A stretch of DNA of 36,491 nt from Myxococcales bacterium (GTDB taxonomy: Bacteria; Myxococcota_A; UBA9042): assembly GCA_002726535.1 (NCBI GenBank), contig PBTG01000078.1, positions 1 through 36,491 on the forward strand. Reading direction: 5' to 3'. Positions 4,113-28,090 of this stretch are shown piece after piece. The position numbers and the translations under genes were made by a program. The notes beneath the pieces were generated by a model. It saw only the letters and a list, made by a program, of their open reading frames with translations, did not search any database and had not been told where the DNA came from. The stretch's first letter is position 1; each line of letters begins with the position of its first letter.

Positions 4113-7100
4113 TTATTGACAAGTCTGGCACGTCGACCCAGAGCAAGCATTCGCTTTGGCTCCGGTCGCTGAGCAGCAGTCACCGTAATTCTTGCACAGG
4201 TTGTCACACCAACAACTAAAGGTTGTGTTCTGACCACCACAAGAGCCGTCACAAGGGTGGGGCTTCTTACAGTCCTTTTCGCAGTTGGCCAGAGTCTCAG
4301 TCGGATCACAGGTGCCGTTACCGCACACAGGCTTGCAATCTTTGATGCACGTAGAAGGCGTCTCAAGGCCTTCACATTTGCCATCACCACACACCGTCGG
4401 GATCGGCTGCAGGACCTTGACCAAGGTGCTCTGCGTCGCGATTGTCTTGTTATCGCCGTTGCCGCCGTAGGTCCCGTACCCTGTGCACCAGACGTCGCCT
4501 TTGTTGGTCAGAACGCAACCTCCTCTGTAGCGAGTCGTGACCTGAATCACGTTGGTTCCATTGGTGATCTTGACCGGTGCGAGACTCGTAGTCGTGGTGC
4601 CGTTTCCGAGTCCACCGCTTTGGTTGTATCCCAGCGCGTAAGCTTGGCTGTCAGACTTGAGGAAGTACGTGAGGTAATAGCCCAAATCGTATTGCCAGAG
4701 ACCAGAACCGAGAGGTTTCATCTGTACGGCTTTGATCTCTTTACCGTACGTCCCGCCGGCCGAAAGCTTGCCCAGACCGAGTGCTCCGTGAGGATTGTAG
4801 CCTTTCGCCCAGGCATTGCCCTTGTCATCGAGAGCGCCCAAAGCGTACGAACCGGCTGTAATCATCGAAACAGGAGGGAAATCAGTGATTTTCACTGCAT
4901 TGATGACATCAGCCGTGTTCGAGCTCAAAAGATTGTTGTAGTAGTTGTAGCCCCAACACATCACTGAGCCAGATTTGGTCCGACCACAAGAGAAACTCTT
5001 ACCTAAGCTAACTTGAACGATGTTCGAAACGTTCTTGGTCTGCGTCGGCACCTTGAGGTCCACACTAGACGCAACACCATTGCCTACTTGGCCATCGGTG
5101 TTGCGGCCCCAGCACCAGACTGTACCGTCGGTTTTAACCGCGCAGGTATGGTAGTCGCCGCAATCGACAGAATCGACCCCTTTTAAGACCAATGCTGGTT
5201 GTAAGGCAGTGGCAGTTGCATTGTTGCCAACCTGTCCATCGGAGTTGTAGCCCCAACAGTAAAGAGCCCCATCCTCTGCAACGGCACAAGAGTGATAGTA
5301 CCCGCCGCTGACTTGCTTGATTCCAGCCAGCCCAGCGACCTGGACAGGGACCTTCTCTGAGGTCGACGTCGAGCCTTTACCGGTCTGGCCATAGTTATTT
5401 CGGCCCCAACAGAACACTTTCTTACCTGTAGTGACCGCGCAGGTGTGATAGCCGTAGTTGTGTGAATCCACCTGCTTGGCCCATCCGCTGGTCAAGGGGC
5501 CGCAAGCCCCAGCCTTACACACCGAACTCAGACCGCATGCGGCGCCGTCATTGCCGGCGATCTGCTTGCACTCACCGAGCGCAAGATCACACGTGTCCTT
5601 CGTGCAAGGCTTGCCGTCATCACACTCTGTATCTTGCTTGCAGGTCCATTTGCAGTTGGCAATCGGAGTCGAGGAGCAGCCGCCAGTCTTGCTGTCACAT
5701 AGATCGACTGTGCACGGGTTCTTGTCATCGCAGCTGACTTTTCCGAGTTGTTTACACTGGCCCGCTTCGCAGACTGGATCGAAGGTACATCCATTGCCAT
5801 CATCGCAATCTTTGGGTTTCGCAACACAAACGCCAGCCTGGGAGCATGCGTCTCCCGTGGTGCACGGATCTCCGTCATCGCAGAGCTTGCCGACGGTCGG
5901 AATGATGTTGCATTGGGCGGTGACGATGTCACACGTGTTCGCGTAACAGCCCTGGCCCATGTTGCACTCGGCGTTGGACGAACATGCGCCATCAGCCACA
6001 CGGGTCCAAACCTGAGCGTTCGCAGTTTTGCCATTTCCAAGTGCGCCATAGAGGTTATAGCCAACGCACCACACAGAGCCCGTTTTGTGCAGAGCGCATG
6101 TGGAGCGATATCCAGCACTAACCTGGATGCTGTCCTTCGGAGCCACCAAAGGAGCTGGCGTGGTTTGGTCGATAGCAGAGCTGGCACTTTTCGTGCCGTT
6201 GCCGAGTTGACCGTAGTAATTGTCACCCCAGGTGCTGATTGTCGCACTGGTACTCAAGGTTACTGCGTGATCTAAACCACCGCTGAACATCGCGACATCT
6301 TTAACTTTCGCCACGTACACATCGGCAGCTGAATCTGTCGGTGTCTTCGAACCGATACCCAACTGTCCGTTATTGTTCTGGCCAATACAGTGCAGTTCCC
6401 CTTTGAGGGACACCACACAGGTATTCTGGTTGCCCACGCCAAGCGAGACCGCTTTGGGGAACTTGGTCACTTTGGTCACGGCGATGTCTGCGGTGGAAGC
6501 AGTCGTCATCGCATTTGAATATAGATTGTAGCCCCAGCAGTAGGTCTCACCCAACTTGCTCAAAGCACAGTAGTGACCGTTACCGCCATCGATGGCGACC
6601 ACATCTGCCACGTTCGCGTCGACCGGCAAGGATGACGAACTCGAGGTCAATGACTTCGAACCCAACTCTTTGTCAGAGTTGCGCCCCCAACACTTGACCC
6701 CGCCTTGGAGATTGACTGCGCACGTGCTGTAGTTCGTCATCGCGAGGGTGACCGCTCCGCTTAGTCCTTTGACCTCTACAGGTGAGGTCGAGTCGGTCGT
6801 CGAGCCATTTCCAAGCTGGCCATACAAGTTGTCACCCCAACACATCACCTTGCCGCCGGTGACGATTGCACAACTGTGCAAGTAGCCGACAGCCACGGCG
6901 GTCGCGTTTGTGACCTTTTGCACAGCAACAGGCACGGAGCTGCTGGTCTTTAGACCATTGCCCAACTGACCGTTGTTGTTGTAGCCCCAGCAACTCACCG
7001 TTCCCTTTGGTCGGAGTACACACGCGTGACGTGCGTTGGGATGCTGAGCGATCTGCGTCGCGAAGCCTGTAATCTGCAGCGACTTGCAAGCGCCGGCGGT

Positions 7101-10100
7101 GCACACCTTGCTTAGCCCGCAGATCGCGCCTTCATTGCCGGGAGTCCACTGGCACAGCCCGTTGACACATTTGTCAGCGGTGCACACTTGGTTGTCGCTA
7201 CATCCAGCATCATCGGTACATTTGACCACACAGGGCGCGACCTTGCTGTGCGTGCAGTTGCCGTTCTTGGTGTCGCAAGCGTCTGTGGTGCAAGGATTGC
7301 CATCGTCACAGTTGGCGTTCTTTACGACGAAGCATTTTCCGCCTTCACAAGCCTCTTCGATGGTGCATGGGTTGCCGTCATCGCAGACTTTCGCTGTCTC
7401 TTGGCAGATGCCGTCTTTGTCACATTTTCCGTTCGACGTGCACTTGTCGCCATCATCGCAGAACACGTTCGTGTTAACGGTCATTGAGCAGAGCCCTGTG
7501 GAAAGACTGCACTGCTGCTTTGTACAAGTATTGTCGTCTTTACAGAACGCGTCGGTTTGACAAGCGCCGTCAGCGACGTGCGTCAGTCGGGTCTTTTGGC
7601 CCGTTGTGCTTGTGGAGCCCCCACCCAGGGATCCGTAAAGGTTGGAACCTGTACACCACACCGAACCATCTGCTCTAAGCACGCAAGTGCGGTAGTACGA
7701 AGCGCTGACTTGCACGATATTGCTCACCCAATCCATGGGGCTTGGGATGCTTTTGGAGACTTTGGTGCCGTCGCCCAACTGTCCATATTGGTTTCGGCCA
7801 ACCGAGTAGGCCACTCCATCGTTCGAGAGCCAAACGCCATGGCTGAGACCGCCGCTGTATCCGATTACAGAAGGCAAGCCCTTCGGGTTGACGTATCCGG
7901 GTGTTGGAGAGCTTGTATTGACCCCAAGCTGATTGTACCCGTTGTTGCCGATGCACTCAGCGACGCCCTTGAAGGTGATGCCGCAGATGGTGCGGTTGCC
8001 GACGAAAGCCGAGGACCACTTCGAAGTTCGGCTGTCACGAACTGGACTCGAAAAGCTAAATGTTTCCGGAGCTTTGGCGATCAAATTGTCGTTACGTCCC
8101 CAACACCACTTGCTGCCATCGGAGCGAATGGCACACGACAGGTTGAGGGCCGTGAAAATGCTCACCACATTCGACATCCCTTCGATCTTGGCAATCGTAC
8201 CGCTATCGCTACCTCCGGACTGTCCATCGCTGTTATTGCCCCAACAGACCACCGTCTTGTCTTTGCGCAACGCACAGGTGTGGTTGTATCCAGCACTGAC
8301 TGCGATCGCGTCGGTGATCCCTTTGGCGGCGGTCACAGGCACTTTTGAACTGGTCGTCGTGCCCTCGCCCAGTTGGTAAGAGCTGTTGTAACCCCAGCAA
8401 TAGATTTTGCCTTGCTGATCGACCGCGCACGCGTGTTGATAGCCCGCCGAGATGTCGATGATGTTTTTCAAATCTTTAACCGCGACTGGCTTGCCGCTGG
8501 TAAGATTGGTCCCATCGCCGAGCTGCCCATAGTTATTGCGGCCCCAGCAAGCCACGCTCTTGTTCTTGAGCAGGGCACAGTGGAAGTTACCGTTGCTGTA
8601 GGCGCTGAGTTTGACTGCCCAACCATCAACCGGGTTAACGGGTGCGCACCCTCCTTTAAGGCAGGTAGATCCGACACCACAGACGGTCCCATCTTTGGCT
8701 GGTGCAATGTTACAGGATCCAGTTTTCACATCGCAGGTGTTCGCAGTGCAAAGGTCTGTGTCTGCGCAATCGGAGTCACTCTTGCAGGTAATCTTGCAAC
8801 CTTGAATCACATTATGAGTACAGAGTCCTGATTTGGTGTCGCAGAGATCAGCGGTGCAAGCGTTGCCGTCGTCACAATTGGTTTTGTCACCAGCGAAGCA
8901 GATGCCGTCTTTGCATTTGTCCCCTAGCGAACATGCGTTGCCGTCGCTGCAGAGATCTGTGTTGGTCGCAAACTTACAAAACCCATTTACGGGGTCACAC
9001 GAATCATTGGTGCAAGCGTTGCCGTCGTCGCATTTCGTGACGCCCGCACATTGAGCTTTTTCATCACAAACATCACTGCTTGTACAGGCGTCTTCGTCGT
9101 CGCAGGCCTTGCCTTTGGCCGGAGCTCCAACGCACTTCGCAGAGAGATCGCACTTATCTGGCCCAGTGCAAACCTGTCCATCGTCGCAACTTTTGCCCCC
9201 AGAGACGCTGCCTTGGCACTTGGCGTCTTTGTCACAGGCGTCTTTCATGGTGCATTCGTTGCCGTCGTCACAGGTGGCTCCAAGCAATGGAGTACCAACG
9301 CAGGCGCCCTTATCGTCGCAAGAATCTTTGGTGCATTCGTTGCCGTCGTCACAGGCCTTACCAACCCAAGGAGTGCCAGCACACTTGCCATCCTTGTCGC
9401 AAAAGGAGTTGCTACACGGGTTGCCATCATCACAGGGCGCACCAAGATTTGGTGAGTTGGTGCATTTGCCGGTCTGCACATCGCAGACACCTTTGGTGCA
9501 CGCATCGCCATCATCACAGCCCGCAAAGGAACAGTGCACATCGCTGACCGACAACGCATCGATGAAGGGACCGATACCGTCATTTTGAACGCAATCTGTG
9601 GTCTTGAAGGTAAAGCGAATCTGAATCGTTTTGCCGATGAAGGCCTTGAGATCGTAGCTCATCGGTTTCCAGGTCGCGCTCCCATTTAAGGTAGCCAACT
9701 GGGTCGCCTGCTTGGACACGACGTCGACGACCTCAACGACCAGATCGTCATAGGTGTTGGACTCCCAATCACCCGCGTAGTTGAAGGTAAGCGCGGGTGA
9801 TAGCGCCCCAACGATGGCGATCTCAGGTGACGTGGCTGTGCCCTCTACCTTGGCGCCGCCAGGCTGGCAGTTAAAATCAGTGCCATTGTTAAAGTTCAGA
9901 CTGCAGTCGAACACTTCGGATTGAGGTTTGGCCGGTGTTTTATCAACCGCCCAGACAGGACCGAGTGCGCCCTTGGACAAGGTCCACGCCTGCGAGGCTT
10001 CGCTGCCGCATTTGAAACCGACCTGGTATGGAAATTTCACCTTGTTCTGATTGCAAGGGCTGACTGCCTTAGGCAGACCACAACCAACCTTCGGGTCACA

Positions 10101-11825
10101 AAGCTCGGGCTCGGTCGTACAAATGTTGTCATCATCGCATCCGACCTCGACTGCATCGCAGCCTGTGCCCGCTACGCAGACATCCAGCGTACAGGGGTTG
10201 CCGTCATCGCAGGTCTTGTCTTTGCCCTTGCAGGAGCCCTTATCGCAGGCGTCGTTTAGGGTGCAATCGTTGCCATCGTCACACTTTTCACCGTCTTTGA
10301 CTGCAGTGTTCGAGCACGTGCCCGTCTTCTTGTCGCAAGAGTCAGTAGTGCATGCATTGTTGTCATCACAGTTTTTCGGATTGCTTAGGCTGCATTGACC
10401 ATCTTTGCAGGTGTCGTCGCTAGTGCAGGCGTCGCCATCGGTACAAGGCAACGCATTTTTGAGAAACTGACAGCCTTTGGATTTCTCACAAAATTCAGTA
10501 GTGCAAATGTTGCCATCGTCACAGTTTTTGGCCGTCGAGATGCATTTGGTGTCTTTGCATGTGTCTATGGTGCACGCGTCGCCATCGGTGCAAGTGACCG
10601 TATTGGGTAGATTGGCGCAGCCTTTGGCGGGATCACAGCTGTCGTCTGTACAGATGTTGTTGTCATCGCAGCCAACCTTGCTACCAACACAAGACCCGCC
10701 GGAGCACATCTCGTTTTCCGTACAAGCGTCCGCATCATCGCAGGTCACCTTGTTGGCCAAGTTCACACAGCCCTTGGCTTTGTCACAGCTATCGTCAGTG
10801 CATACGTTGTTGTCGTCGCACTGCACCGCAGGGCCAACACACGCACCGGACTCACATTTGTCATCTTTGGTGCACGCATCGCCGTCATCACAATTGGCGC
10901 TGTCATCATTGGTTACCGTACAGCCAGCTGGACCGCCGCAGGCATCTTGAGTACATGGGTTGCCGTCATCGCAGAGCGAGCCATTGTCAGCGGTGCCGTC
11001 GCAATCTTGGTCTACACCGTCGCAGGTCTCAGCCTGGGGAGTTGCCGGCTCGCATGCGCTCAACCCTTTGTCTTCGCAGCTTCGGGTTGCTTCGCAGCCA
11101 GGAAGCCCATCAGCGTAACAACTGGTCGTCAGCGCTTTGAGCTTAGCCCAGCCGTTGCAGGTACACTCAGCGTCTTGGTTTGGCAGGCAACGCTTGGCCT
11201 CTTTGCCAGCGACGTCCTTGCTGTCAACGCAGGCGTACCCTTCAGCACAATCCCCATCAACCGCGCATGCCGTCGAGCAAAAACTTCCGGTAGCGCCGCG
11301 ATCAACACAAGCACCATCGGTAGCGCCAGGCACGTCGCAGTGCGCGTTGGTCAGGCAGGGTGAACAGGTCGCTACAAATGGGTCGACGCAGAATTTCGCG
11401 CTCGCCAAGTCGGTGCAAACCCCGTTTTCACAGGTGTCTTTGTCATCACAAGGGACCGCACAACTCGATTTGCCATCCGCGCCGAGCACACAAGGTCCAG
11501 ATGAGCATTCACTATCTTCTTTACATTCACAGCCAGGCGCTCCAGGGCAGGTAGGAGCAGCGTCAGGGCTCGAGGCGTCCTGCTCGGTGCTGCTGTCTGA
11601 GGCGGTGGTGTCGAAGTTAGAGCTATCAGCCGATGTGGTGTCCTGGCCGGTCGAGGTGTCATCGACAACCGATGTGTCCTCTGATCCAGAGGTTTCCCCT
11701 TGCGACACGGTATCGCTCGATTGCTCATCATCAACGGGAGCCTCTCCACAACCTGCAAATAATAGCGTTGAAGTGGTGAAAGAGACGACCAGTAGCGATG
11801 AAAAATAACGAGACATTGCCCTCAT
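4113..11825 (-). CDS. giant (2570 aa) Cys-rich repeat lipoprotein with three RCC1-like beta-propellers, a beta-sandwich domain and a C-terminal somatomedin-B-like domain; putative adhesin
   Basis: Start moved from 11927 to ATG 11825 (AGGAGG 5 nt upstream). Lipobox LFAG-C26, S/T/D-rich linker, ETCDGVDQDCDG motif, about 32 CDDGNxCT-type repeats, RCC1 repeats (CWGxNxYGQLG, xSAGYxHxC), two CGxGxC-x3-ET-x3-C-x2-DC units and an SMB-type cysteine pattern. Uninterrupted 7.7-kb ORF. Confidence 0.88.
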   Translation of the reverse strand: MRAMSRYFSSLLVVSFTTSTLLFAGCGEAPVDDEQSSDTVSQGETSGSEDTSVVDDTSTGQDTTSADSSNFDTTASDSSTEQDASSPDAAPTCPGAPGCECKEDSECSSGPCVLGADGKSSCAVPCDDKDTCENGVCTDLASAKFCVDPFVATCSPCLTNAHCDVPGATDGACVDRGATGSFCSTACAVDGDCAEGYACVDSKDVAGKEAKRCLPNQDAECTCNGWAKLKALTTSCYADGLPGCEATRSCEDKGLSACEPATPQAETCDGVDQDCDGTADNGSLCDDGNPCTQDACGGPAGCTVTNDDSANCDDGDACTKDDKCESGACVGPAVQCDDNNVCTDDSCDKAKGCVNLANKVTCDDADACTENEMCSGGSCVGSKVGCDDNNICTDDSCDPAKGCANLPNTVTCTDGDACTIDTCKDTKCISTAKNCDDGNICTTEFCEKSKGCQFLKNALPCTDGDACTSDDTCKDGQCSLSNPKNCDDNNACTTDSCDKKTGTCSNTAVKDGEKCDDGNDCTLNDACDKGSCKGKDKTCDDGNPCTLDVCVAGTGCDAVEVGCDDDNICTTEPELCDPKVGCGLPKAVSPCNQNKVKFPYQVGFKCGSEASQAWTLSKGALGPVWAVDKTPAKPQSEVFDCSLNFNNGTDFNCQPGGAKVEGTATSPEIAIVGALSPALTFNYAGDWESNTYDDLVVEVVDVVSKQATQLATLNGSATWKPMSYDLKAFIGKTIQIRFTFKTTDCVQNDGIGPFIDALSVSDVHCSFAGCDDGDACTKGVCDVQTGKCTNSPNLGAPCDDGNPCSNSFCDKDGKCAGTPWVGKACDDGNECTKDSCDDKGACVGTPLLGATCDDGNECTMKDACDKDAKCQGSVSGGKSCDDGQVCTGPDKCDLSAKCVGAPAKGKACDDEDACTSSDVCDEKAQCAGVTKCDDGNACTNDSCDPVNGFCKFATNTDLCSDGNACSLGDKCKDGICFAGDKTNCDDGNACTADLCDTKSGLCTHNVIQGCKITCKSDSDCADTDLCTANTCDVKTGSCNIAPAKDGTVCGVGSTCLKGGCAPVNPVDGWAVKLSAYSNGNFHCALLKNKSVACWGRNNYGQLGDGTNLTSGKPVAVKDLKNIIDISAGYQHACAVDQQGKIYCWGYNSSYQLGEGTTTSSKVPVTAAKGITDAIAVSAGYNHTCALRKDKTVVCWGNNSDGQSGGSDSGTIAKIEGMSNVVSIFTALNLSCAIRSDGSKWCWGRNDNLIAKAPETFSFSSPVRDSRTSKWSSAFVGNRTICGITFKGVAECIGNNGYNQLGVNTSSPTPGYVNPKGLPSVIGYSGGLSHGVWLSNDGVAYSVGRNQYGQLGDGTKVSKSIPSPMDWVSNIVQVSASYYRTCVLRADGSVWCTGSNLYGSLGGGSTSTTGQKTRLTHVADGACQTDAFCKDDNTCTKQQCSLSTGLCSMTVNTNVFCDDGDKCTSNGKCDKDGICQETAKVCDDGNPCTIEEACEGGKCFVVKNANCDDGNPCTTDACDTKNGNCTHSKVAPCVVKCTDDAGCSDNQVCTADKCVNGLCQWTPGNEGAICGLSKVCTAGACKSLQITGFATQIAQHPNARHACVLRPKGTVSCWGYNNNGQLGNGLKTSSSVPVAVQKVTNATAVAVGYLHSCAIVTGGKVMCWGDNLYGQLGNGSTTDSTSPVEVKGLSGAVTLAMTNYSTCAVNLQGGVKCWGRNSDKELGSKSLTSSSSSLPVDANVADVVAIDGGNGHYCALSKLGETYCWGYNLYSNAMTTASTADIAVTKVTKFPKAVSLGVGNQNTCVVSLKGELHCIGQNNNGQLGIGSKTPTDSAADVYVAKVKDVAMFSGGLDHAVTLSTSATISTWGDNYYGQLGNGTKSASSAIDQTTPAPLVAPKDSIQVSAGYRSTCALHKTGSVWCVGYNLYGALGNGKTANAQVWTRVADGACSSNAECNMGQGCYANTCDIVTAQCNIIPTVGKLCDDGDPCTTGDACSQAGVCVAKPKDCDDGNGCTFDPVCEAGQCKQLGKVSCDDKNPCTVDLCDSKTGGCSSTPIANCKWTCKQDTECDDGKPCTKDTCDLALGECKQIAGNDGAACGLSSVCKAGACGPLTSGWAKQVDSHNYGYHTCAVTTGKKVFCWGRNNYGQTGKGSTSTSEKVPVQVAGLAGIKQVSGGYYHSCAVAEDGALYCWGYNSDGQVGNNATATALQPALVLKGVDSVDCGDYHTCAVKTDGTVWCWGRNTDGQVGNGVASSVDLKVPTQTKNVSNIVQVSLGKSFSCGRTKSGSVMCWGYNYYNNLLSSNTADVINAVKITDFPPVSMITAGSYALGALDDKGNAWAKGYNPHGALGLGKLSAGGTYGKEIKAVQMKPLGSGLWQYDLGYYLTYFLKSDSQAYALGYNQSGGLGNGTTTTSLAPVKITNGTNVIQVTTRYRGGCVLTNKGDVWCTGYGTYGGNGDNKTIATQSTLVKVLQPIPTVCGDGKCEGLETPSTCIKDCKPVCGNGTCDPTETLANCEKDCKKPHPCDGSCGGQNTTFSCWCDNLCKNYGDCCSATGAKANACSGSTCQTCQ
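4410..8627 (-). repeat. three tandem [Cys-rich spacer + RCC1-like propeller] super-repeats within the giant gene
   Basis: Propellers at about 8627-7570, 7068-5990 and 5487-4410. Each is preceded by CG-x4-C-x2-G-x-C and starts G(W/F)A; the first two end VADGAC. Each spacer between propellers has five Cys repeats. Confidence 0.85.
8640..10972 (-). repeat. Cys-rich CDDGNxCTxDxC repeat arrays (12 + 10 units) flanking a Cys-poor beta-sandwich domain at about 9540-10030
   Basis: Units counted in the translation. An identical 27-bp segment (tggtgcattcgttgccgtcgtcacagg) occurs at 9248-9274 and 9329-9355, 81 nt apart. Confidence 0.85.
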
Positions 11826-11967
11826 AGCATCCTCCTGCCAGCGGATTTTAGGCCCTTCAACGGACAAAAACCGCGACGTTACAGGTATCAGTGCAATATT
11901 CTGAGGCTTTTTGCAACTCGAGCACACAGTTTTTCAATAACAAATAAAAAATAAAAACACAATAATA

Positions 11968-13125
11968 TTAAATATTTAGTGGGTTTTTACTCTCACCTTT
12001 TGGGCTTTTAAAAGCGACCTGGACCCAAAACGCGGCGACGACGGCGACGCCTGCAGCCAACAAAAAGAGGCCGCGGAGCGCACCGGTCCCCTCTAAGGTC
12101 GTTGCACTCAAGAGCATCACCAAAGGGCCAAGCCCGGCCGCAGAGGCCATCAAAGCAGACTGGGCAGAATTTCGAGCCTGCTCTGGCACGTTATCGCTGA
12201 GCCAAGCGATAGCTCCCATCCAAAAGGCGCCAAAGGTCACGCCATGGGTGAACTGCACGGCCGTAATCAGCAGAGGGTCCTCAACAGCACCTGTTATCAA
12301 AAAGCGTGGAATGCAAACCCAAATGGCCAAGCGCATCATGCCCACTGCTCCAATACGCCGGAGCAACCAGCCAGACAGACCCATCACCGTCACCTCAACG
12401 GTCAACCCGCCGATGAAAGCCGCTGTAGCATACGATGTGGGAGCGCCAAGCTCGGCCATGTACAGCGAAAACAAGAAATCGTAGGCAGCGTGCATCGTGC
12501 CCAGAAGGCCGCCCAAACCGATTACTGCGGCGACTTTTTTGTCCTTAAATACAGATCGTAATTCACTAAACCCAGCCAATCGAGCCTGGAACTTGGCTTG
12601 AGGCAACGACCACGTCCACAGGGCGCACAAACTCAGCAATAAGGCGTTAATCAATAGCGGCGTGTCGACGACCTGGTCGATCTGAGTGCCAACGCCAAAC
12701 ACCATTGCCGCAAAACAAACCGAGCCCCACATCCTGACGCGACCATACTCAGCGGCTCCTTGGTCAAGGGCCGCGACGGTCAGAGCGTCAACCAAAGGGA
12801 TCATCGGCGCCCGACTGAGCGCGAGCAGCGCAAAACTCACCACCACAATGACCCAATTGTCCGTCATCGCAGCAACAATCGATGACAAGGCCGCCAAGCA
12901 TGCCGCGCCTCTCAGCCAGCGTTCAGGTCTTTCGCTCCGGTCGGTCAGATAGCCCCAAAGCAACCCTGCACTCAAAAAACCGAGCGGGAATAGGGTCAAG
13001 ATCGCCGCTGTCTCGGAGGCGGATGCTCCACGCTGCGCTAGAGTGCGGGCCAAAAAAGGATGCAAGGCGCCGAGGCTGCCAATGGCCATCGTGTACCAAA
13101 GAGCGAGCCGAAAACTCGGTGACAT
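11968..13125 (-). CDS. MFS transporter (HcaT/YwbF/MFS_1_like type)
   Basis: 385 aa with about 12 hydrophobic segments; WGYLTDRS and YGRVRMWGS motifs; starts 11 nt downstream of the preceding lipoprotein stop. Confidence 0.85.
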   Translation of the reverse strand: MSPSFRLALWYTMAIGSLGALHPFLARTLAQRGASASETAAILTLFPLGFLSAGLLWGYLTDRSERPERWLRGAACLAALSSIVAAMTDNWVIVVVSFALLALSRAPMIPLVDALTVAALDQGAAEYGRVRMWGSVCFAAMVFGVGTQIDQVVDTPLLINALLLSLCALWTWSLPQAKFQARLAGFSELRSVFKDKKVAAVIGLGGLLGTMHAAYDFLFSLYMAELGAPTSYATAAFIGGLTVEVTVMGLSGWLLRRIGAVGMMRLAIWVCIPRFLITGAVEDPLLITAVQFTHGVTFGAFWMGAIAWLSDNVPEQARNSAQSALMASAAGLGPLVMLLSATTLEGTGALRGLFLLAAGVAVVAAFWVQVAFKSPKGESKNPLNI

Positions 13126-13136
13126 ACGTGAGAAAT

Positions 13137-14525
13137 TCAGAGTTGAGCCTCAGTGCTTACGCCAGCACCCCACCAGGGTGCTTTCGAACCACTAAAACCT
13201 TGCAGGCTTTTGCCTTTTCCTGATTTTTCGTCGATCTCCCAAACGTTCGTGTTGCTACTAAAGCCATAAAACACGCCGCCCCACCAAGCCAGACCCCACA
13301 AGTTGTTGGCACCGATGACTCCAAGATCACTGATGACCTTGCCGGTCTTTGGGTTGACTTTGACGAGCACATCTTCAGAGACGCCCGACTTTTTCACCGT
13401 CGCGTAGGTGCCGACGCCCAAGACGCTAAAGGCGTCACCACTGGAGCTGTAACCGCTGCCATAGCTACCGAGCTTAATGACTTTGTTATTGATCAGATCG
13501 ATGTGCCACCACCCACCATTGTTGGCGATCCCGATCAAAGCATCTTGGCTGGGATAGACCGTCCCTTTGTGTACAAAAGTCAGTCCATTGAACTGAGTAG
13601 GTAACTTCATCACCCAGCTGCATGAAGCGGTTTGTGTCTTGCATTTGAAGAGATCAGTGAAAGTCACCGCATACATGATGTTGCTGCGATCCAAGGCAAT
13701 GTCAGTCACCAACCCCTTAGACTTGTTGAAAGTGAAGGTCCCAACCAATGAGAAGCTCTTGGTCTTGAGGTCCAGTTTGTACAGCGCGCTGCTGGTATGT
13801 GCGAACAACGTCCCGACACTGACGCATACGCCCGCCTCGCAGGTCTTTGTTTGCCCGCAGGGCGTTTGATCAACAGCCTGACTGGAGACGCAGCCTTTGA
13901 CGGGATCGCAAGAATCATCGGTACACAAGTTGCCATCATCACAATTGGGGGCTGTTCCTTTGCAGAAACCATCGCTGCATACGTCATTTTCGGTGCACAT
14001 CGAATCATCATCACAGGATCCCGTCTTTGCGACGAAGGAACACCCTTTACTCGGATCGCAAGAAGCGATGACGCAGGGATTGGCCGAGGAACAATCCAAA
14101 GGGGTTGAGCCGACGCATTTCGAAGCGCTGCACTGATCCTCCGTGGTGCAAGCATCGCCATCATCACAGCTGAGTGATTCTGCGACGGGTTGATGCTGAC
14201 ATTGGCCCGCTGCGCAGGTGTCCGTCGTGCATGGGTTGTCGTCGTCACATTGGCAGTTGCCTACATCTGCGCCAGTTGAGTCTGCTGCGTCTGAGGTGAC
14301 AGAGTCTTCGGATACACCGCCGTCAGAGACAGCTGCATCACTGCTCTCGCTTGCGTCGGCGACATCGACAGCGCCACTGTCGACGTTAACAATCGCGATA
14401 CCATCGTCTTGCTGAGTATCTAGAGACGATTCAGTGCCACAGGCGAAAACAAGCATACACAGCAACAAGGACGACGAAGTCTTAAGATATCTGTTGATCC
14501 GTGAAAGAGCGTATGCAAAGCGCAT
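13137..14525 (-). CDS. Cys-rich repeat lipoprotein with C-terminal beta-propeller-like domain (462 aa)
   Basis: Start moved to ATG 14525 (AAGGA 5 nt upstream; avoids overlap with the divergent gene). Lipobox VFA-C29, acidic linker, five CDDGNxCT-type repeats, CGQTKTCEAGVC, then a beta-rich domain (LFAHTSSALYKLD, TDIALD, FNGLTF, SSGD, LWGLAW, WWGAG). Confidence 0.8.
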   Translation of the reverse strand: MRFAYALSRINRYLKTSSSLLLCMLVFACGTESSLDTQQDDGIAIVNVDSGAVDVADASESSDAAVSDGGVSEDSVTSDAADSTGADVGNCQCDDDNPCTTDTCAAGQCQHQPVAESLSCDDGDACTTEDQCSASKCVGSTPLDCSSANPCVIASCDPSKGCSFVAKTGSCDDDSMCTENDVCSDGFCKGTAPNCDDGNLCTDDSCDPVKGCVSSQAVDQTPCGQTKTCEAGVCVSVGTLFAHTSSALYKLDLKTKSFSLVGTFTFNKSKGLVTDIALDRSNIMYAVTFTDLFKCKTQTASCSWVMKLPTQFNGLTFVHKGTVYPSQDALIGIANNGGWWHIDLINNKVIKLGSYGSGYSSSGDAFSVLGVGTYATVKKSGVSEDVLVKVNPKTGKVISDLGVIGANNLWGLAWWGGVFYGFSSNTNVWEIDEKSGKGKSLQGFSGSKAPWWGAGVSTEAQL

Positions 14526-14594
14526 TGTATTCCTTTCCAACGTTGCGTTCCCGCAAAGGTTAGCCCATGGTTCAGTCACTGGATAGGAGAAGCT

Positions 14595-15539
14595 ATGAGC
14601 GGACACTTTTTTGATCAGACGACCATCCCCGTCATCGCCGCACCCATGTTTTTGGTCTCACAACCCAAACTGGTCGTCGCCTCGTGTAGAGCTGGGATTA
14701 TCGGCACTTTTCCTGCACTCAACCACAGAACCACCGAGGGCTTTGATCAGTGGCTGACGGATATTGAGTCAGCCCTAGAGCAGAGCCGTAGAGACGATCC
14801 AGACGCGATCATCTCGCCTTACGGCGTCAATTTGATCGTCCACCGGACCAATCCCCGGGTGAAGGCGGATCTGGAGGTGATCGTCAAACACAAAACACCT
14901 CTGGTGATCACTTCGCTTGGTGCTGTGAAAGAGGTCGTCGACGCAGTGCACAGCTACGGCGGTAAAGTATTCCACGACGTGACCAACGTTCGGCATGCAA
15001 AAAAAGCGATCGGCGCTGGAGTCGACGGATTGATTCTGGTGACCGCTGGAGCAGGTGGTCACGCAGGCACCCTGTCGCCCTTCGCACTCCTGCCAGAAAT
15101 TCGAAAGATTTTCGACGGCACCATCTGTTTAGCAGGTTGCATCTCCGACGGAGCAGCAGTCGCATCGGCCAGAGCCCTTGGCGCTGACTTTGCCTACATG
15201 GGAACTCGCTTCATCGCCGTTGAAGAAGCCAACGCGCCTGACAACTACAAGCAGATGATTTTGGAGACTTCAGCCAAAGATATCATTTACACAGCAGCCA
15301 TCTCAGGCATACCAGCCAGCTTCCTTGCGCCAAGTTTGGTCGCCGCTGGCATCCGCCTAGAGGATCTCCCTGCACACAAAGAGATCAACCTAGGTGAAGA
15401 GCTCGACACCGAATCCAAGGCCTGGAAGGACATTTGGTCGGCAGGACAGGGCGTCGGCACCATCGACGATGTGCCGACGGTGGCGGAGTTGGTCTCCCGA
15501 TTCAAAGCACAATACCTACAAGCCAAGGCCCGGGTGTGA
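14595..15539 (+). CDS. nitronate monooxygenase / FabK-like FMN-dependent oxidoreductase
   Basis: PVIAAPMFLVS, GAGGHAG, GADFAYMGTRFIA, WKDIWSAGQG motifs; AGGAG RBS. Confidence 0.92.
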   Translation: MSGHFFDQTTIPVIAAPMFLVSQPKLVVASCRAGIIGTFPALNHRTTEGFDQWLTDIESALEQSRRDDPDAIISPYGVNLIVHRTNPRVKADLEVIVKHKTPLVITSLGAVKEVVDAVHSYGGKVFHDVTNVRHAKKAIGAGVDGLILVTAGAGGHAGTLSPFALLPEIRKIFDGTICLAGCISDGAAVASARALGADFAYMGTRFIAVEEANAPDNYKQMILETSAKDIIYTAAISGIPASFLAPSLVAAGIRLEDLPAHKEINLGEELDTESKAWKDIWSAGQGVGTIDDVPTVAELVSRFKAQYLQAKARV

Positions 15540-23105: not shown

Positions 23106-23708
23106 CTACCAGCCGTCATTGTCTTCGAATTGCCGCCGGTCACCGCCGCCACGACCGCCACGACCGCCGCGACCGTCCCGACCACCACGACCGCCACGAC
23201 CGCCACGGCCACCACGGTCAGCATAGTCGTCATGACGCTGATCTCGCTCTTTGCCTCGCCGGCGTTCGCGACGACGACGATCGTCTCGTTCAAACATCGA
23301 AGGCTCTGGGGGGGGCTGTCCATAACTGGAAGGACCACGTCCAGGGCCTCCGCGGCCTCCTTGAGATTCGCCACGGCCGGAAAAGTTCGGCCGAGAGCGT
23401 CCAGCACCCCCACGAAAATCATCTGAGCCGCTATGGCGTGGCCGTTGCTCACGACCTCCAGCTCTTTCCCGAGCGAGATCGACCTTCAAACGGCGCCCAT
23501 CGACTTCTTTGCCATCCATGGCTGATTGCGCGGATGCGGCCTCTTCGATCGTCTCGAAAGTCACGAAGCCAAAACCTCTCGACCGTCCTGTTTCGCGATC
23601 GGTCATTACTTTTGCGTCCGTTACGACACCAAACTCACTGAAGGCTTGTCGCAGTCCGTCATCGGAAGTCGACCAACTGATTCCTCCAACAAAAAGTCTC
23701 TTACTCAT
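23106..23708 (-). CDS. RRM-domain RNA-binding protein with long RGG and mixed-charge low-complexity tail
   Basis: RNP2 LFVGGI, DRETGRSRGFGFVTF (RNP1), DGRRLKVDLA, then about 118 aa rich in G/R/D/E. Confidence 0.93.
   Translation of the reverse strand: MSKRLFVGGISWSTSDDGLRQAFSEFGVVTDAKVMTDRETGRSRGFGFVTFETIEEAASAQSAMDGKEVDGRRLKVDLARERAGGREQRPRHSGSDDFRGGAGRSRPNFSGRGESQGGRGGPGRGPSSYGQPPPEPSMFERDDRRRRERRRGKERDQRHDDYADRGGRGGRGGRGGRDGRGGRGGRGGGDRRQFEDNDGW
23142..23217 (-). repeat. 9-bp coding tandem repeat (RGG box)
   Basis: About eight imperfect accgccacg units on the + strand, encoding RGGRGGRGGRGGRDGRGGRGGRGGG on the - strand. Confidence 0.9.
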
Positions 23709-23970: not shown

Positions 23971-24540
23971 TTACTCAGTCTCGTTCTCACGGTAGATGGC
24001 CGGTGAGCCAACAGCGTTGCACTCGGCGTTAGTAGCGGCCGGGTCGCCACCACCAACAAGCTGGAAGGTCGAGAAGACGCTGTCACAGTCGAGGTCAGCG
24101 TTGGCCTCGGCAGTGTACATAGCGGCTTTTTTCGTACCAGCAGATGCGTAGCTGTACTGGAAGTAGTGCTGATCAGTGATCGAGAACTTCAGGGCCGACC
24201 AGGTGCTGTTGTTCCACGAGCTGAGCGACGGATCGCAACGGTCATCGCCGTCCGTGTCAGCGTTGCAGCAACCGGTACCTGTTGGAGTACTGTTAGCTGC
24301 TGCCGGGAACTGGCAGGGAACGCGGGACATGGTGCCTTTAGCAGTACGCGGCGTCGTGTAGTACGTCGTCGAGCCCTTTTTGATCATGTCCAACATTTCG
24401 TTGGCCTCAGCCGTTTTGGCTGCACGCATGTACTTGGTGAACTGTGGAACTGCGACCACCGCGAGAATAGCGATGATGGCAACAACAATCATGAGCTCGA
24501 TAAGGGTAAATCCTTTCGACTCGCGAAGATTCTTAAACAT
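23971..24540 (-). CDS. pilA: type IVa major pilin (189 aa prepilin, 179 aa mature)
   Basis: Class III signal MFKNLRESKG/FTLIELMIVVAIIAILAVVAVPQF; ATG 24540 with AGGAGG; lies directly downstream of pilS-pilR with its own sigma54 promoter and terminator. Confidence 0.92.
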   Translation of the reverse strand: MFKNLRESKGFTLIELMIVVAIIAILAVVAVPQFTKYMRAAKTAEANEMLDMIKKGSTTYYTTPRTAKGTMSRVPCQFPAAANSTPTGTGCCNADTDGDDRCDPSLSSWNNSTWSALKFSITDQHYFQYSYASAGTKKAAMYTAEANADLDCDSVFSTFQLVGGGDPAATNAECNAVGSPAIYRENETE

Positions 24541-24631
24541 GGTTTTTCCTCCTAACACGCCAAGTTGGTTATCGGCGAATCCTTAACTAAGTTTGGACGC
24601 CGATTGGTGACGTGCCTCGGGTCAGCAATAG

Positions 24632-24648
24632 TGCACAGGCGATGCCAA
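24632..24648 (-). promoter_or_regulatory. sigma54 (-24/-12) promoter of pilA
   Basis: Minus strand TTGGCATCGCCTGTGCA gives GG-N10-GC and matches the TGGCAC-N5-TTGCW consensus closely; the neighbouring PilR has a GAFTGA motif; predicted start near 24621. Confidence 0.85.
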
Positions 24649-24650
24649 CC

Positions 24651-24702
24651 TTGATTTAATTTTTATAACTTTATGAAAATAATGATGATTAATATTTTCA
24701 TC
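24651..24702. promoter_or_regulatory. AT-rich tract between the sigma54 promoter and candidate enhancer (IHF/bending region)
   Basis: ttgatttaatttttataactttatgaaaataatgatgattaatattttca is strongly AT-rich against the window background, at the position where DNA looping is needed in sigma54 promoters. Confidence 0.55.
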
Positions 24703-24725
24703 TTCTGTGCCGATCTTTCAACAAG

Positions 24726-24791
24726 TGACCATTTACGTCGATCTTGTCAATCTTGGGTGACAAAGATCGTCACTTGCGACGGAAAATGTCA
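24726..24791. promoter_or_regulatory. candidate PilR upstream activating sequences (three GAC-N7-GTC palindromes)
   Basis: GAC-catttac-GTC 24727-24739, GAC-aaagatc-GTC 24759-24771 (within gtGAC...GTCac) and GAC-ggaaaat-GTC 24778-24790, about 105-170 nt upstream of the predicted start. Confidence 0.6.
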
Positions 24792-24826
24792 GCGACAAGG
24801 GCGCAGTCGATCGAATCGACCCCAGA

Positions 24827-26269
24827 TTACTCATTCAACTTACTCAATTTATAACGGAACTGGCGAAAACTTAGGCCGACACGAGCGGCTGCGTCGGTTT
24901 TGTTTTGCGAGGTGTGATCGAGAGCGCTTTGCAACACTGCGCGCTCCACATCCGACAATAAGGTTTCAAGCTCAACGTTGTGACCGGCTTGGGAAAGCCA
25001 GTGATCAATCCCTTGAGCAAATTGTTCGGTGAGAGACTCTGGCGACAACTCACTCGTAGCGAGGCCAGTGCTCTCAACTGTCACGGGCTGAAAAACCCCC
25101 GAGGACCCTGGGTCAGGTAAATAAGTCGCCGTGACGATAGACTCAGTCTCAAGCGCGACCGCCCTTTCGATGATGTTCTCTAGCTCACGGACGTTGCCGG
25201 CATAGCTCAATTGCTTGAGAACGCGCACAGCCTGATCATCAAATCCTTGCAGCTGTCTGCCCATACGTCGATTCATGCGTTCGAGAAAGTGCTCGGCTAA
25301 TGGGGCGATGTCTTCTTTGCGGTCTCGAAGAGCTGGCAGACGAATCTCGATGACGTTTAAGCGGTAATACAAATCCGCGCGGAAAGTCCCGGACTGGATG
25401 GCTTTACGCAAATCTTTGTGAGTCGCGGCGACGACGCGCACATCGATCTCAACCTCATCGGTGCTCCCGACAGGGGTGATCACCCTTTCCTGAAGGACAC
25501 GCAGCAGTTTGACCTGGAGGTTGAGCGACAGTTCGCCGATCTCATCGAGAAACAACGTACCGCCATGAGCCGCCTCAAAGAGACCTTTCTTGTCTTTCGA
25601 AGCGCCTGTGAAGGCGCCTTTGACGTGACCGAATAGCTCACTTTCCATCAGTTGGTCTGGAATCGCTCCGCAGTTGATGGCCACGAAGGGTTTGGGCGCT
25701 CGTTCACTTTGATGATGCAGCATCCGAGCCACAACCTCTTTACCAGTTCCACTCTCTCCGAGTAGCAAGACGTTGGAGGGCGTAGGGGCGACCCGAGCGA
25801 TCATCCCCTCAACCTCAGCCATCGCGCTGCTGCAATAGGTCAACGAGACGGTCTGTTTACCGCTTGATTTGAGCGCTTCTCGCAGTTGAGCATTCTCACG
25901 AACGAGCGAGCCCTTTTCCATGCACTTGTCGATGACCACCCTGACAGCGTCGAGCTGGAAAGGCTTGATCACGTAATCATAGGCGCCGCGCCGCATGGCC
26001 TCTAAGGCTGTTTCAGTTGAGGAATACGCGGTCATGACAATGACTTGGGTCTCAATCCCTCGCTCTTTGATCTCGCTGAGTAAGTCCAATCCATCCATCC
26101 GTGGCATACGAATGTCAGTCAACACCACTTCAAACGAAGTCTTTTCGAGGACCTCAAGGGCTCGCAGACCGTTGCTGGCGACTTCAACGTCGTGGCCTTC
26201 CTTACGGAGAAATATGGTCAGAAATTGTCGTAGAGACAAATCGTCATCCACAATCAAAAGCTTTGCCAT
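24827..26269 (-). CDS. pilR: sigma54-dependent NtrC-family response regulator PilR
   Basis: Receiver (IVDDD, TDIRMP), AAA+ GESGTGKE, ESELFGHVKGAFTGA, FLDEIGE, FRADLYYRL, GNVRELEN and C-terminal HTH; lies between pilS and pilA. Confidence 0.9.
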   Translation of the reverse strand: MAKLLIVDDDLSLRQFLTIFLRKEGHDVEVASNGLRALEVLEKTSFEVVLTDIRMPRMDGLDLLSEIKERGIETQVIVMTAYSSTETALEAMRRGAYDYVIKPFQLDAVRVVIDKCMEKGSLVRENAQLREALKSSGKQTVSLTYCSSAMAEVEGMIARVAPTPSNVLLLGESGTGKEVVARMLHHQSERAPKPFVAINCGAIPDQLMESELFGHVKGAFTGASKDKKGLFEAAHGGTLFLDEIGELSLNLQVKLLRVLQERVITPVGSTDEVEIDVRVVAATHKDLRKAIQSGTFRADLYYRLNVIEIRLPALRDRKEDIAPLAEHFLERMNRRMGRQLQGFDDQAVRVLKQLSYAGNVRELENIIERAVALETESIVTATYLPDPGSSGVFQPVTVESTGLATSELSPESLTEQFAQGIDHWLSQAGHNVELETLLSDVERAVLQSALDHTSQNKTDAAARVGLSFRQFRYKLSKLNE

Positions 26270-26341
26270 TTGACCTATCTCCTGTGCCTATCTCCTCAAC
26301 CATATGTTGCCCAGTAGGCAGGGCACAAGCTCCGTACCAGA

Positions 26342-28090
26342 CTAAGATGCTGAACGATGTGCAGAACCTTCTTTACGTCGATTGCGAGGGATTTTCACAG
26401 TAAATACCGCCCCTCCCAGGGCCGCTTCACCCACATCAACAGTCCCTTTGTGAGCCTGAACGACACGAGCGACCGTGGCCAACCCGAGTCCCGTCCCTTT
26501 GACGCGTGTTGTGTAAAAGGGCTCGAAAAGATGTTCGCGCTCTTGTGGATCGATGCCTCGGCCGCTATCGGCGACCACAATGCAAAGCTCATCTGGCTCT
26601 GCGGTGACGTGAACTTCAACGATGCGACGGTCCACCTCAAGCACGGCATCGGTCGCGTTGCGTAGTAGGTTCCAAACCAAAGCGGAGAGCGCTTTGCGAT
26701 CGCCGCGAATCCCACCATCTTCACAGTTAATACGAATCCGTAGATCAACGTTTGCGTCGGTCACGAGTGGATCTTTTTCCATCGCAGCCAAGGTGTCCTG
26801 AATCAACTCAAGCATGTCAAAGGACTCCATCGTCACGCTTCCAGGCTTGGCATAATCGAGGAACTCACCAATCCAGGCTGAGAGATTCTCTGTCTCTCGG
26901 ATGGCGATGTCCATGAGGCGGCGGTCTTCATCATCGGCGTTATCGTCGACATTGAGCATCTGAATGGAGCCGCTGATAGAGGCCAGTGGATTGCGAATCT
27001 CATGAGCGATCGCCATGGCCATTGCACCGACGGTAGCGAGCCGTTCACGGTTGAGGTGCTCACGCTCACGCTGCCGAATTTTGGTCACATCACGAATCAA
27101 CAAGAGCGACTCCCCCGTCGGGCGGCCATCAGCATCTCGCAAAATTTCTCCACGCATGGCGATGATCTGCTCATCGCCCGCGATATCATCGCGCGACAAC
27201 TCTTCGGTCTGACTGCTGCGTGGAATCTCGACGGTCTGAACCGGCATGATCGGATCCCAGTCAAGCTCTGGCAATAAGGTTTTGAGAGATTGATCGACCA
27301 CCTGCTGAGTCTCCAATCCCAAAATTCTCAAAAAAGCCGGGTTCGCTGTTCGAACTTGTCCATCCCGAGCGATGGTCGCGAGACCATCAGGTAAAGACGA
27401 CCAGACGTCCTCGTACCGGACTCGCAAGGCAGCCAGTTCTCGGCGTTCAGTGACAGCTCGCTGTCGAGCCCGATTGAGTTCGATCACGAGCTGAGAACTC
27501 AATAGAGCTGTACCCAAGAGCGCTGCCATCAGCACCGCGGCCTGGACGACGATCTCAAAGCCCGTCTTGGGTAACTCGCGGATACCCAACTCTCGCAGCC
27601 AAGCAACGGTCCATGGCTCTAGATCGAAGGTTAAAATTCCAGCATCTAGCAGGCTAATAACCACCACAAATGCAGAGCACAGCCCCGCTGCAATCAGCGC
27701 TCCTGGCCGCTCCAAAAGAGCGGCTCCACCGAGGACCGCTAAGGGCAAGCCAAACAAAAAGACGCTCTCAGTCGCGTGAGAGATTGTCACCAAAGACACA
27801 GCGAAGAGCACATCCAAGCCAACAGAGGCCCATGCGAGCGCATAGTGAATCTTTTGGGGCAGCAAATAGGTGGCTAGAAGCACAATAAATGTGAAGCAAA
27901 AGAAGGCCGTAATGAGCTTATACAGAACGACTTCCGGAACTTGAGTGATGGGCAGAGGGCCTAAACCCAAATCCATCGCAATGCCAAAAGCCAACAGAGC
28001 CGACAGAGCGATGACCCGGGCGAAGGTCTCCCACTTGATCCGCTCAGCGAAGCGATTTCGGCTCTCGATGCCTGGCGTGTACTCGCTCAG
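26342..28090 (-). CDS. pilS: membrane sensor histidine kinase PilS (start uncertain: CTG 28090 proposed, ORF track TTG 27994)
   Basis: Multi-TM N-terminus, PAS domain, H-box AHEIRNPL, NLLRNA, DSGRGI, FEPFYTT, GTGLGL. The frame stays open upstream of 27994 and encodes RIKWETFARVIALSALL, the start of the first TM helix. Confidence 0.85.
   Translation of the reverse strand: MSEYTPGIESRNRFAERIKWETFARVIALSALLAFGIAMDLGLGPLPITQVPEVVLYKLITAFFCFTFIVLLATYLLPQKIHYALAWASVGLDVLFAVSLVTISHATESVFLFGLPLAVLGGAALLERPGALIAAGLCSAFVVVISLLDAGILTFDLEPWTVAWLRELGIRELPKTGFEIVVQAAVLMAALLGTALLSSQLVIELNRARQRAVTERRELAALRVRYEDVWSSLPDGLATIARDGQVRTANPAFLRILGLETQQVVDQSLKTLLPELDWDPIMPVQTVEIPRSSQTEELSRDDIAGDEQIIAMRGEILRDADGRPTGESLLLIRDVTKIRQREREHLNRERLATVGAMAMAIAHEIRNPLASISGSIQMLNVDDNADDEDRRLMDIAIRETENLSAWIGEFLDYAKPGSVTMESFDMLELIQDTLAAMEKDPLVTDANVDLRIRINCEDGGIRGDRKALSALVWNLLRNATDAVLEVDRRIVEVHVTAEPDELCIVVADSGRGIDPQEREHLFEPFYTTRVKGTGLGLATVARVVQAHKGTVDVGEAALGGAVFTVKIPRNRRKEGSAHRSAS

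Follow-up and report, generated by a model that had tools for sequence, protein, structure and literature searches.

The stretch of DNA analysed here (the window) is 36,491 nucleotides of the forward strand of contig PBTG01000078.1 from a Myxococcales bacterium, and its minus strand carries the gene for a giant, cysteine-rich lipoprotein that is the subject of this report. The window is one entire contig (C77) of assembly GCA_002726535.1, which holds 2.72 Mb in 202 contigs and is 67.5% complete. The gene is single and intact, occupying the longest open frame of the minus strand (4113..11927). An in-frame ATG at 11825 leads to a product of 2,570 residues with 232 cysteines, in which glycine, aspartate and threonine are abundant. 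The Pfam E-values of its domains (7.8e-58 for Dicty_CTDC and 4e-100 for RCC1) exclude chance, and 4113-11825 is a real gene rather than a chance open frame. Scans near the ends of the gene gave nothing useful, with three promoter-like sites compared with 3.9 expected and four terminator-like sites compared with ten expected.

From the N-terminus, the product consists of a lipoprotein signal peptide, an acidic tether, a cysteine-rich head, a stalk of Dicty_CTDC repeats, a β-sandwich, a second stalk, three RCC1 propellers separated by shorter pieces of stalk and a cysteine-rich tail (Table 1). This is the order in which the first-pass annotation, made from the sequence alone, had placed the parts, and Pfam, a hidden Markov model (HMM) of the repeat and the structure models agree with it; the lipobox with its acidic linker and the cysteine-rich domains at either end are likewise as described there. 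To that description we add the type of the repeat (Pfam Dicty_CTDC), of the sandwich (a modelled MAM fold) and of the tail (somatomedin-B-like). We also find that the architecture recurs in related metagenome-assembled genomes (MAGs) and that the head is common to dozens of paralogues per genome which carry other payloads. In our view, held with little more than even confidence, the giant is a lipid-anchored protein with a disulfide-stiffened stalk, which would act at the outer membrane or on vesicles as a multivalent binder of ligands outside the cell.

Table 1. Parts of the giant lipoprotein gene, followed by its upstream neighbours and the other head-bearing frames of the source genome. Positions refer to the window unless another contig of the assembly (C number) is named.
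Feature	Position	Strand	Basis
Shine-Dalgarno sequence AGGAGG, 5 nt before the ATG at 11825	11831..11836	-	read from sequence
Lipoprotein signal peptide, residues 1-26, lipobox LFAG/C, Cys26	11748..11825	-	sequence pattern
Acidic Ser/Thr/Asp-rich tether, residues 27-92, 17 Asp/Glu and 0 Lys/Arg	11550..11747	-	composition count
Cys-rich head, residues 93-284, 27 Cys, ends in MopE-like CDGxDxDCDG	10974..11549	-	28-sequence alignment
Stalk 1, 12 Dicty_CTDC repeats, residues 285-585	10071..10973	-	Pfam PF00526, own-repeat HMM
MAM-fold β-sandwich, residues 586-768	9522..10070	-	structure model and fold search; Pfam borderline
Stalk 2, 9 Dicty_CTDC repeats and Cys-rich cap, residues 769-1065	8631..9521	-	repeat HMM
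RCC1 propeller 1, residues 1066-1421, seven blades	7563..8630	-	Pfam and alignments
Stalk part of unit B, residues 1422-1585, 4 strong and 1 weak repeat, cap	7071..7562	-	repeat HMM
RCC1 propeller 2, residues 1586-1947	5985..7070	-	Pfam and solved relatives by sequence
Stalk part of unit C, residues 1948-2112, 4 strong repeats, cap	5490..5984	-	repeat HMM
RCC1 propeller 3, residues 2113-2478	4392..5489	-	Pfam and alignments
Cys-rich tail, residues 2479-2570, 18 Cys	4116..4391	-	Pfam PF01033, vitronectin alignment
MFS_1_like transporter gene, 142 nt upstream of the giant gene, same strand	11968..13125	-	
Smaller lipoprotein of the giant's style, next gene upstream of MFS_1_like	13137..14606, likely start 14525	-	
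Head paralogue, seven FG-GAP repeats after head and Dicty_CTDC stalk	C3 2223-4541	-	Pfam
Head paralogue, NHL / teneurin-NHL (TEN_NHL) repeats after head and Dicty_CTDC stalk	C57 1835-5191	-	Pfam
Head paralogues, Dicty_CTDC only	C191, C3, C131, C65		Pfam
Head paralogues, MopE motifs	C20, C129		Pfam
Head paralogue, CARDB	C70		Pfam

The signal peptide (MRAMSRYFSSLLVVSFTTSTLLFAG followed by C) has a basic N-region, a hydrophobic core and a lipobox (residues 22-26, L-F-A-G-C) that ends in cysteine, the rule for substrates of signal peptidase II. By these sequence features the giant is a predicted lipoprotein of the signal-peptidase-II type. Every one of the 17 family members inspected has a lipobox followed by an acidic linker free of lysine and arginine, 16 of them as recognised by a pattern and one as judged by eye. 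None of the 17 has a lysine at position +2 after the lipobox, which in Myxococcus is the rule for retention in the inner membrane. The C-terminus of the giant is a cysteine knot without a hydrophobic segment, and a search of the whole protein for C-terminal sorting signals (MYXO-CTERM, PEP-CTERM and the C-terminal domain of type IX secretion) returned no NCBIfam family at E <= 0.01.

In the source genome there are two matches to LspA (PF01252) and two open frames for Lgt (PF01790), with both families matching above cut-off, together with nine DsbA-like domains and one VKOR-DsbA fusion frame; these numbers agree with a proteome rich in exported disulfide proteins. The 232 cysteines of the giant, four to each repeat, fit an oxidising extracytoplasmic compartment. 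To judge from its frames, the disulfide-forming apparatus of this genome looks enlarged. We note that the disulfide-formation frames lie on C96 (14405-16276), C109 (9686-11512) and C8 (12463-13809); two frames have three tandem DsbA-like (Thioredoxin_4) domains each and one, of 848 residues, contains VKOR and a DsbA-like domain.

The 27 cysteines of the head are invariant across the alignment of 28 homologues. The sole Pfam match in this region is a MopE motif at residues 264-280, which at 22.9 bits is under the cut-off of 27, and neither Pfam nor NCBIfam holds a model for the head as a domain. Structure prediction gave a model with a predicted local distance difference test score (pLDDT) of 90.2 and a predicted template-modelling score (pTM) of 0.81. 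Foldseek found no match to this model at E <= 0.001 in the PDB, where the best E was 0.92, nor at the same threshold among the BFVD viral models. Of 48,161 chains compared by VIA-align, 16 reached Z >= 2 but no chain reached Z >= 5. The highest-scoring match (Z 3.0, r.m.s. difference 2.8) covers 37 residues, and the top rows are pieces of 30-56 residues which are knottin-, colipase- or Dickkopf-like. The model suggests that the head is made of small disulfide modules in a fixed arrangement, with no match to it as a whole domain. The absence of a fold match is no proof of a new fold. Being confidently modelled, yet lacking both a Pfam or NCBIfam model and a structural match over the whole domain, the head clearly qualifies as a candidate for a new family of domains.

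The stalks are built from tandem units of about 24 residues which match Pfam Dicty_CTDC (PF00526; 192.3 bits compared with a cut-off of 27), and an HMM made from the protein's own repeats finds 29 strong copies. Searching the PDB sequences with the stalk gave no match at E <= 1. The 12 CDDGNxCT repeats that the first-pass annotation had counted in the first stalk are all strong (residues 285-583) and contribute 48 cysteines, four per repeat. Of the ten that it had counted in the second stalk, nine are strong (770-1004), while the tenth is only a degenerate cap; the last 164 or so residues of this stalk form the stalk part of the first of three repeated units (unit A). The linkers between the propellers are of 164-165 residues each. 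For these, five and five repeats had been proposed: the first holds four strong and one weak, but the second only four strong. The rise of EGF-like repeats is 2-3 nm each, and if the same held here then 29 repeats and four globular domains would be longer than any periplasm.

The sandwich between the first two stalks was modelled from a 30-row alignment with a pLDDT of 86.9 and a pTM of 0.85. Foldseek matched the model to 169 solved chains at E <= 0.001, with promeprin β the best (E 3.7e-7, TM 0.68), and VIA-align superposed it on meprin β with a Z of 17.2 and an r.m.s. difference of 2.7 for 153 residues. The nine top VIA-align rows are all MAM domains, one to five Z units above the reelin repeats and carbohydrate-binding modules, which rank after them at Z 12-14 (12-13 for the carbohydrate-binding modules). 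With Pfam InhA-like_MAM (PF20773) the whole protein gives 22.8 bits and the domain alone 26.9, a score equal to the cut-off of 26.9. The model indicates that the sandwich is a MAM-fold domain with a Pfam score at the cut-off. A MAM-like domain was matched in the genomes of all 41 relatives, at 8-53 places per genome within the taxonomic family and 1-20 in the other families of the class. The tail contains two CGxGxC...C..DC modules and then a somatomedin-B-like module (residues 2524-2570 approximately). Pfam PF01033 gives 21.1 bits for the tail of the giant, under the cut-off of 23.1, and 38.4 bits for the equivalent tail of the orthologue P0038; the somatomedin-B knot of vitronectin aligns with the giant's tail at E 0.081. 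We therefore describe the tail as somatomedin-B-like, its own Pfam score being below the cut-off.

The first-pass annotation had called the three large C-terminal segments RCC1-like propellers, and the Pfam scores bear this out: 585.1 bits for WD40_RLD / RCC1-like domain (PF25390; cut-off 150, E 8e-176), 328.7 for RCC1 (PF00415; cut-off 21.7) and 398.4 for RCC1_2 (PF13540; cut-off 22). Each segment has seven (C)WG-x-N-x2-GQLG junction motifs and blades of about 50 residues, of which blades 4-5 are degenerate in all three, and each contains 14-23 tyrosines and 24-25 asparagines. A search with propeller 2 found 35 distinct solved sequences at E <= 0.001, led by UVR8 (4.9e-43) and including, in descending order, HERC2 (5.2e-33), RPGR, RCC1 (1.9e-17) and BLIP-II (6.7e-12). 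These matches to solved propellers argue that the segments form closed seven-bladed propellers.

The pieces of stalk before the propellers (residues 902-1065, 1422-1585 and 1948-2112) are 38-42% identical and the propellers are 34-39% identical to one another, from which it follows that a unit of about 525 residues has been triplicated; a unit of about 520 had been proposed. Of the motifs then thought to be shared, the entry motif CG-x4-C-x2-G-x-C...G[W/F]A does precede all three propellers, whereas the exit motif VADGAC follows propellers 1 and 2 but not propeller 3, which ends VLQPIPTVCGDGKC. A tree was calculated from the 33 propellers of 11 three-propeller relatives. In it, the giant's propeller 2 clusters with its counterparts at position 2 in P0004 and P0015 (support 99/99) and its propeller 3 with theirs at position 3 (100/99), while eight of the 11 third propellers form one group (92/84). 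The position labels change seven times on the tree, compared with a mean of 15.9 when shuffled, and none of 200 shuffles was as low. Propeller 1 of the giant has no resolved placement, its best identity being 46% to the first propeller of P0004. As the propellers group by position across orthologues, the three units are old and each has been retained. No recent duplication or conversion was seen at the DNA level, where there are just short motif repeats of 60-81% identity, and the only other RCC1 frames in the assembly (on C73 and C70) are about 25% identical to the giant's propellers.

Among eight orthologues, 67 columns are conserved in all propellers and represent the scaffold. Columns conserved at one position alone number ten (two, two and six for the three positions), compared with a shuffled mean of 0.44 and a maximum of three in 200, in a test that is inflated by relatedness. 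The mean column identity within a position is 0.40-0.42. Such apparently fast-evolving propeller surfaces fit either diversifying recognition or weak constraint.

BLIP-II of Streptomyces (β-lactamase inhibitory protein II) acts by binding a protein. It is the sole solved secreted bacterial propeller of the RCC1 type and it does match propeller 2, so that the giant could be imagined as a periplasmic or secreted inhibitor or regulator of the same kind, with propellers that would each block an enzyme, either the cell's own or a competitor's, for instance a β-lactamase, a hydrolase or a penicillin-binding protein. The eukaryotic UVR8 and HERC2 are nevertheless far closer (4.9e-43 for UVR8 compared with 6.7e-12), some 1,000 residues of stalk and a MAM domain would have no obvious purpose in an inhibitor, and no target gene adjoins that of the giant. 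We consider an inhibitor improbable.

The search for relatives was confined to proteins of 1,413-4,498 residues, and 5,369 of the 7,998 candidates scored had E <= 0.001, which indicates that giants with multiple RCC1 propellers are common in bacteria. Dicty_CTDC and RCC1 occur together in 18 of the 120 matches listed, and every relative on that list with a source name is called `hypothetical protein'. Over residues 1010-1950 the closest relatives are P0004 (53% identity), P0015 (43%) and P0016, P0022, P0028, P0034 and P0038 (39-41%). All of these keep the giant's whole order of parts; P0008, P0019 and P0032 have four propellers. These uncharacterised orthologues in related MAGs share with the giant the lipobox, acidic linker, cysteine-rich head, Dicty_CTDC repeats, MAM-like domain, second set of Dicty_CTDC repeats and three RCC1 propellers, but most are without its tail, a somatomedin-B-like tail being present in P0016 and P0038. 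The architecture had not been recognised as that of a characterised protein, and this still holds, as we found no characterised orthologue and no publication on the architecture in a literature search that covered articles without their supplements. The orthologue-bearing records are all MAGs with labels that are vague or plainly wrong (six loci found with a six-row head alignment). For ClpB, the six relatives of at least 64% identity that have an organism label are all from Myxococcales, Myxococcota or Deltaproteobacteria MAGs, other phyla appearing from about 60-61%.

The head is more widespread than the giant's complete architecture. At E <= 1e-10 every one of the 37 genomes in the taxonomic family has it, with ten places in the incomplete source genome and 15-65 in each of the other 36, within open frames of about 450 to 5,300 residues. 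In a sample of 301 genomes of the phylum its profile had matches in 123: all 57 other genomes sampled from the same class (E 9e-35 to 1.7e-68) and, outside the class, 65 of 243, where the matches are weaker and possibly partial. A lipobox was recognised by pattern in six of the ten head-bearing frames of the source genome, and the payloads of these frames vary (Table 1). On this comparison of sequences, the giant is one member of a family of head-stalk-payload lipoproteins with exchangeable payloads in uncultured marine MAGs labelled as Myxococcota. We note that the best-scoring copies of the head are in a conserved lipoprotein of about 690 residues (L028 1138-3213, plus strand; frames of about 675-710 residues in many genomes of the family), which has MopE motifs and a small number of Dicty_CTDC repeats and ends in a short hydrophobic stretch (...FGFLAWLMQLIGK). 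This protein may be the core member of the head family.

Dicty_CTDC takes its name from matrix and spore-coat proteins of Dictyostelium, and the giant may accordingly be asked to fit a structural part in an extracellular matrix, sheath or coat, where the cysteine repeats would cross-link or stack and the propellers would make contacts from matrix to matrix. Dicty_CTDC repeats do make up most of the non-propeller length of the giant, they are massively expanded in the source genome (586 first-look candidates, 150 of which were scored) and the weakly conserved propeller surfaces agree with a non-specific role. A lipid anchor and a single-chain plan of head, stalk and payload with exchangeable propellers look more like display, however, and dozens of differing paralogues per genome would be unexpected for a bulk structural protein; the function in Dictyostelium, moreover, enters here as general background. 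A structural role is in our view unlikely, although less so than inhibition.

The gene immediately upstream of that of the giant encodes an MFS_1_like transporter which NCBIfam places, below its cut-offs, as a distant relative of 3-phenylpropionate transporters. Our scan showed no terminator-like site between the two genes. Their adjacency is kept in three of five relatives' contigs (G001, G002 and G009), one of which is from another genus; of the remaining contigs, one lacks the upstream DNA and in one (G008) the gene was not found. In the smaller lipoprotein beyond the transporter, a lipobox (LVFAC) and an acidic linker precede about five Dicty_CTDC repeats, the CG-x4-C-x2-G-x-C junction and a C-terminal domain of about 215 residues for which Pfam and NCBIfam gave no match; this lipoprotein and its counterpart in the same-genus genome G002 share 66% identity. 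Elsewhere in the window, a 200-residue protein (23106-23708, minus strand) has an RNA recognition motif of eukaryote type (RRM_1, 83.7 bits), and its gene adjoins a cluster of type IV pilus and two-component genes at 23971-29292.

A common head with varied C-terminal parts in many paralogues also brings to mind polymorphic toxins or contact-dependent effectors, in which a conserved N-terminal delivery part is joined to variable C-terminal payloads. The teneurin-like toxins of Myxococcota have similar N-terminal display modules, according to the available part of a recent preprint (bioRxiv 10.1101/2025.11.11.687626). The payloads found here, however, are binding folds (RCC1, FG-GAP, NHL and MAM) and no toxin or enzyme family was found among them. 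For the giant itself, Pfam and NCBIfam gave no catalytic or toxin family (none in NCBIfam at E <= 0.01), no YD shell and no C-terminal toxin. There is no small immunity-like gene downstream of that of the giant, where the neighbour is a spermidine synthase. An effector of this kind is the least credible of the explanations that we have considered, and we regard it as very improbable.

Parts of the giant gene were present in six sequencing runs from four studies. One metagenome contig (X2) contains 3,831 bases of the region with zero differences; another (X3) contains 312 bases and a third (X5) five listed pieces of 90-213 bases, again with zero differences. The contigs with identical pieces are from seawater and marine metagenomes of other studies, in which relatives of about 86% identity also occur. 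We note that public contigs are chimeric or broken at Dicty_CTDC repeats, with 15 such joints listed and 24 more, and short-read assemblies probably contain many genes of the giant's family as fragments or chimeras.

Returning to the lipid-anchored, multivalent binding protein that we prefer, its assembly and action might be as follows. After export by the Sec pathway, Cys26 of the lipobox would be acylated and followed by the acidic tether of about 65 residues and the 27-cysteine head. The arrays of two-disulfide Dicty_CTDC repeats, which might bind Ca2+, would act as a stiff stalk and keep four globular modules for binding at a distance from the membrane, these being one MAM-fold sandwich (of lectin or adhesion type) and three seven-bladed RCC1 propellers; the somatomedin-B-like knot would form the end of the chain. 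Sorting to the outer membrane, with which the lack of Lys at +2 throughout the family members is compatible, would be followed by exposure on cells or on outer-membrane vesicles. Its ligands, for example glycans or proteins carried by particles, by prey or by adjacent cells, would be bound multivalently.

Several observations weigh against this interpretation. Surface exposure of a lipoprotein is not predictable from sequence in this lineage, and the argument that the giant is too long for a periplasm depends on a rise per repeat that is borrowed from EGF-like repeats. The propeller surfaces are, in the alignments, poorly conserved even among orthologues, with no conserved binding site visible, and this lack of conservation weakens the idea of three fixed specificities. 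We know of no bacterial extracellular RCC1 propeller with a known ligand except BLIP-II. None of the six sequencing runs is an RNA run, and the source assembly is only 67.5% complete.

A broader interpretation is that the head and the Dicty_CTDC stalk constitute an undescribed, class-wide scaffold with which uncultured marine Myxococcota would display 15-65 exchangeable, fast-evolving β-propeller and lectin-like modules per genome, as an innate receptor repertoire for prey, particles or kin, and that the head is a new fold which docks all members to one common partner in the envelope. We put this forward tentatively, as a possibility that is doubtful at present but a little more attractive than a structural role in a matrix. 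Large modular envelope proteins set what a bacterium sticks to, eats and recognises, and uncultured marine Myxococcota are suspected predators. The plan described here, of lipid anchor, acidic tether, 27-cysteine head, stalk of two-disulfide repeats and exchangeable propellers, is reusable, and in its head-stalk-payload form it fills many open frames per genome across a whole bacterial class. Three propellers that are conserved in position and variable in surface also offer a tractable system for the ligands of extracellular bacterial RCC1 proteins.

Comparison with known systems indicates that the parts of the giant, all domains but the head, are mostly of known types, with a function that we infer; the head and the family plan are most worth following. 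The nearest solved relatives of the propellers, UVR8, the RLD of HERC2, RPGR and RCC1, share the seven-blade repeat and the GQLG motif with the giant. However, UVR8 (the UV-B receptor), HERC2 (a ubiquitin ligase) and RCC1 (the Ran exchange factor) are intracellular, and none of these relatives has an extracytoplasmic, disulfide-rich setting. BLIP-II (PDB entries 1jtd and 3qhy) is, like the giant's propellers, a seven-bladed bacterial propeller of RCC1 type and is secreted, but it consists of one small domain (solved chains of 273-287 residues) and has no lipid anchor, stalk or MAM domain. The sandwich has the same fold as those of meprins α and β, LAST-MAM, neuropilin-1 and InhA2, with Z values of 17.2-14.6 for the meprins and LAST-MAM and 12.4 for neuropilin-1. 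Its identity to known MAM domains is 12-18%, and it lies between repeat stalks rather than beside a protease.

Closer to the source organism, MXAN_0889, an RCC1-repeat β-propeller protein, was among the vesicle-specific proteins identified in Myxococcus xanthus by mass spectrometry, according to the available part of that study (PMC4158809); it is a myxobacterial RCC1-repeat protein like the giant, the likeness being one of description. For the repeat, the accessible portion of a preprint on eukaryotic `CysRReps' places the bacterial matches mostly in Myxococcota (bioRxiv 10.64898/2026.06.07.730663); that repeat may be related to the giant's. The very large all-RCC1 proteins of Oscillospiraceae (gut Clostridia), which are predicted to be extracellular and are uncharacterised, resemble the giant in their size and many RCC1 propellers. 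As far as the available text describes them (bioRxiv 10.1101/2023.11.21.568195), they are RCC1 throughout, without an anchor, cysteine-rich stalk, MAM domain or head. For the bacterial teneurin-like proteins, the part of the preprint available to us lists Dicty_CTDC as an N-terminal module, and the Myxococcota members are predicted lipoproteins with a signal-peptidase-II signal, Dicty_CTDC and an NHL propeller in the body (bioRxiv 10.1101/2025.11.11.687626), to be compared with the source-genome paralogue in which NHL/TEN_NHL repeats follow the head and Dicty_CTDC stalk. As described there, however, the teneurin-like proteins are built with a YD shell and end in a toxin, whereas in the giant the same kind of stalk carries three RCC1 propellers and neither of these parts.

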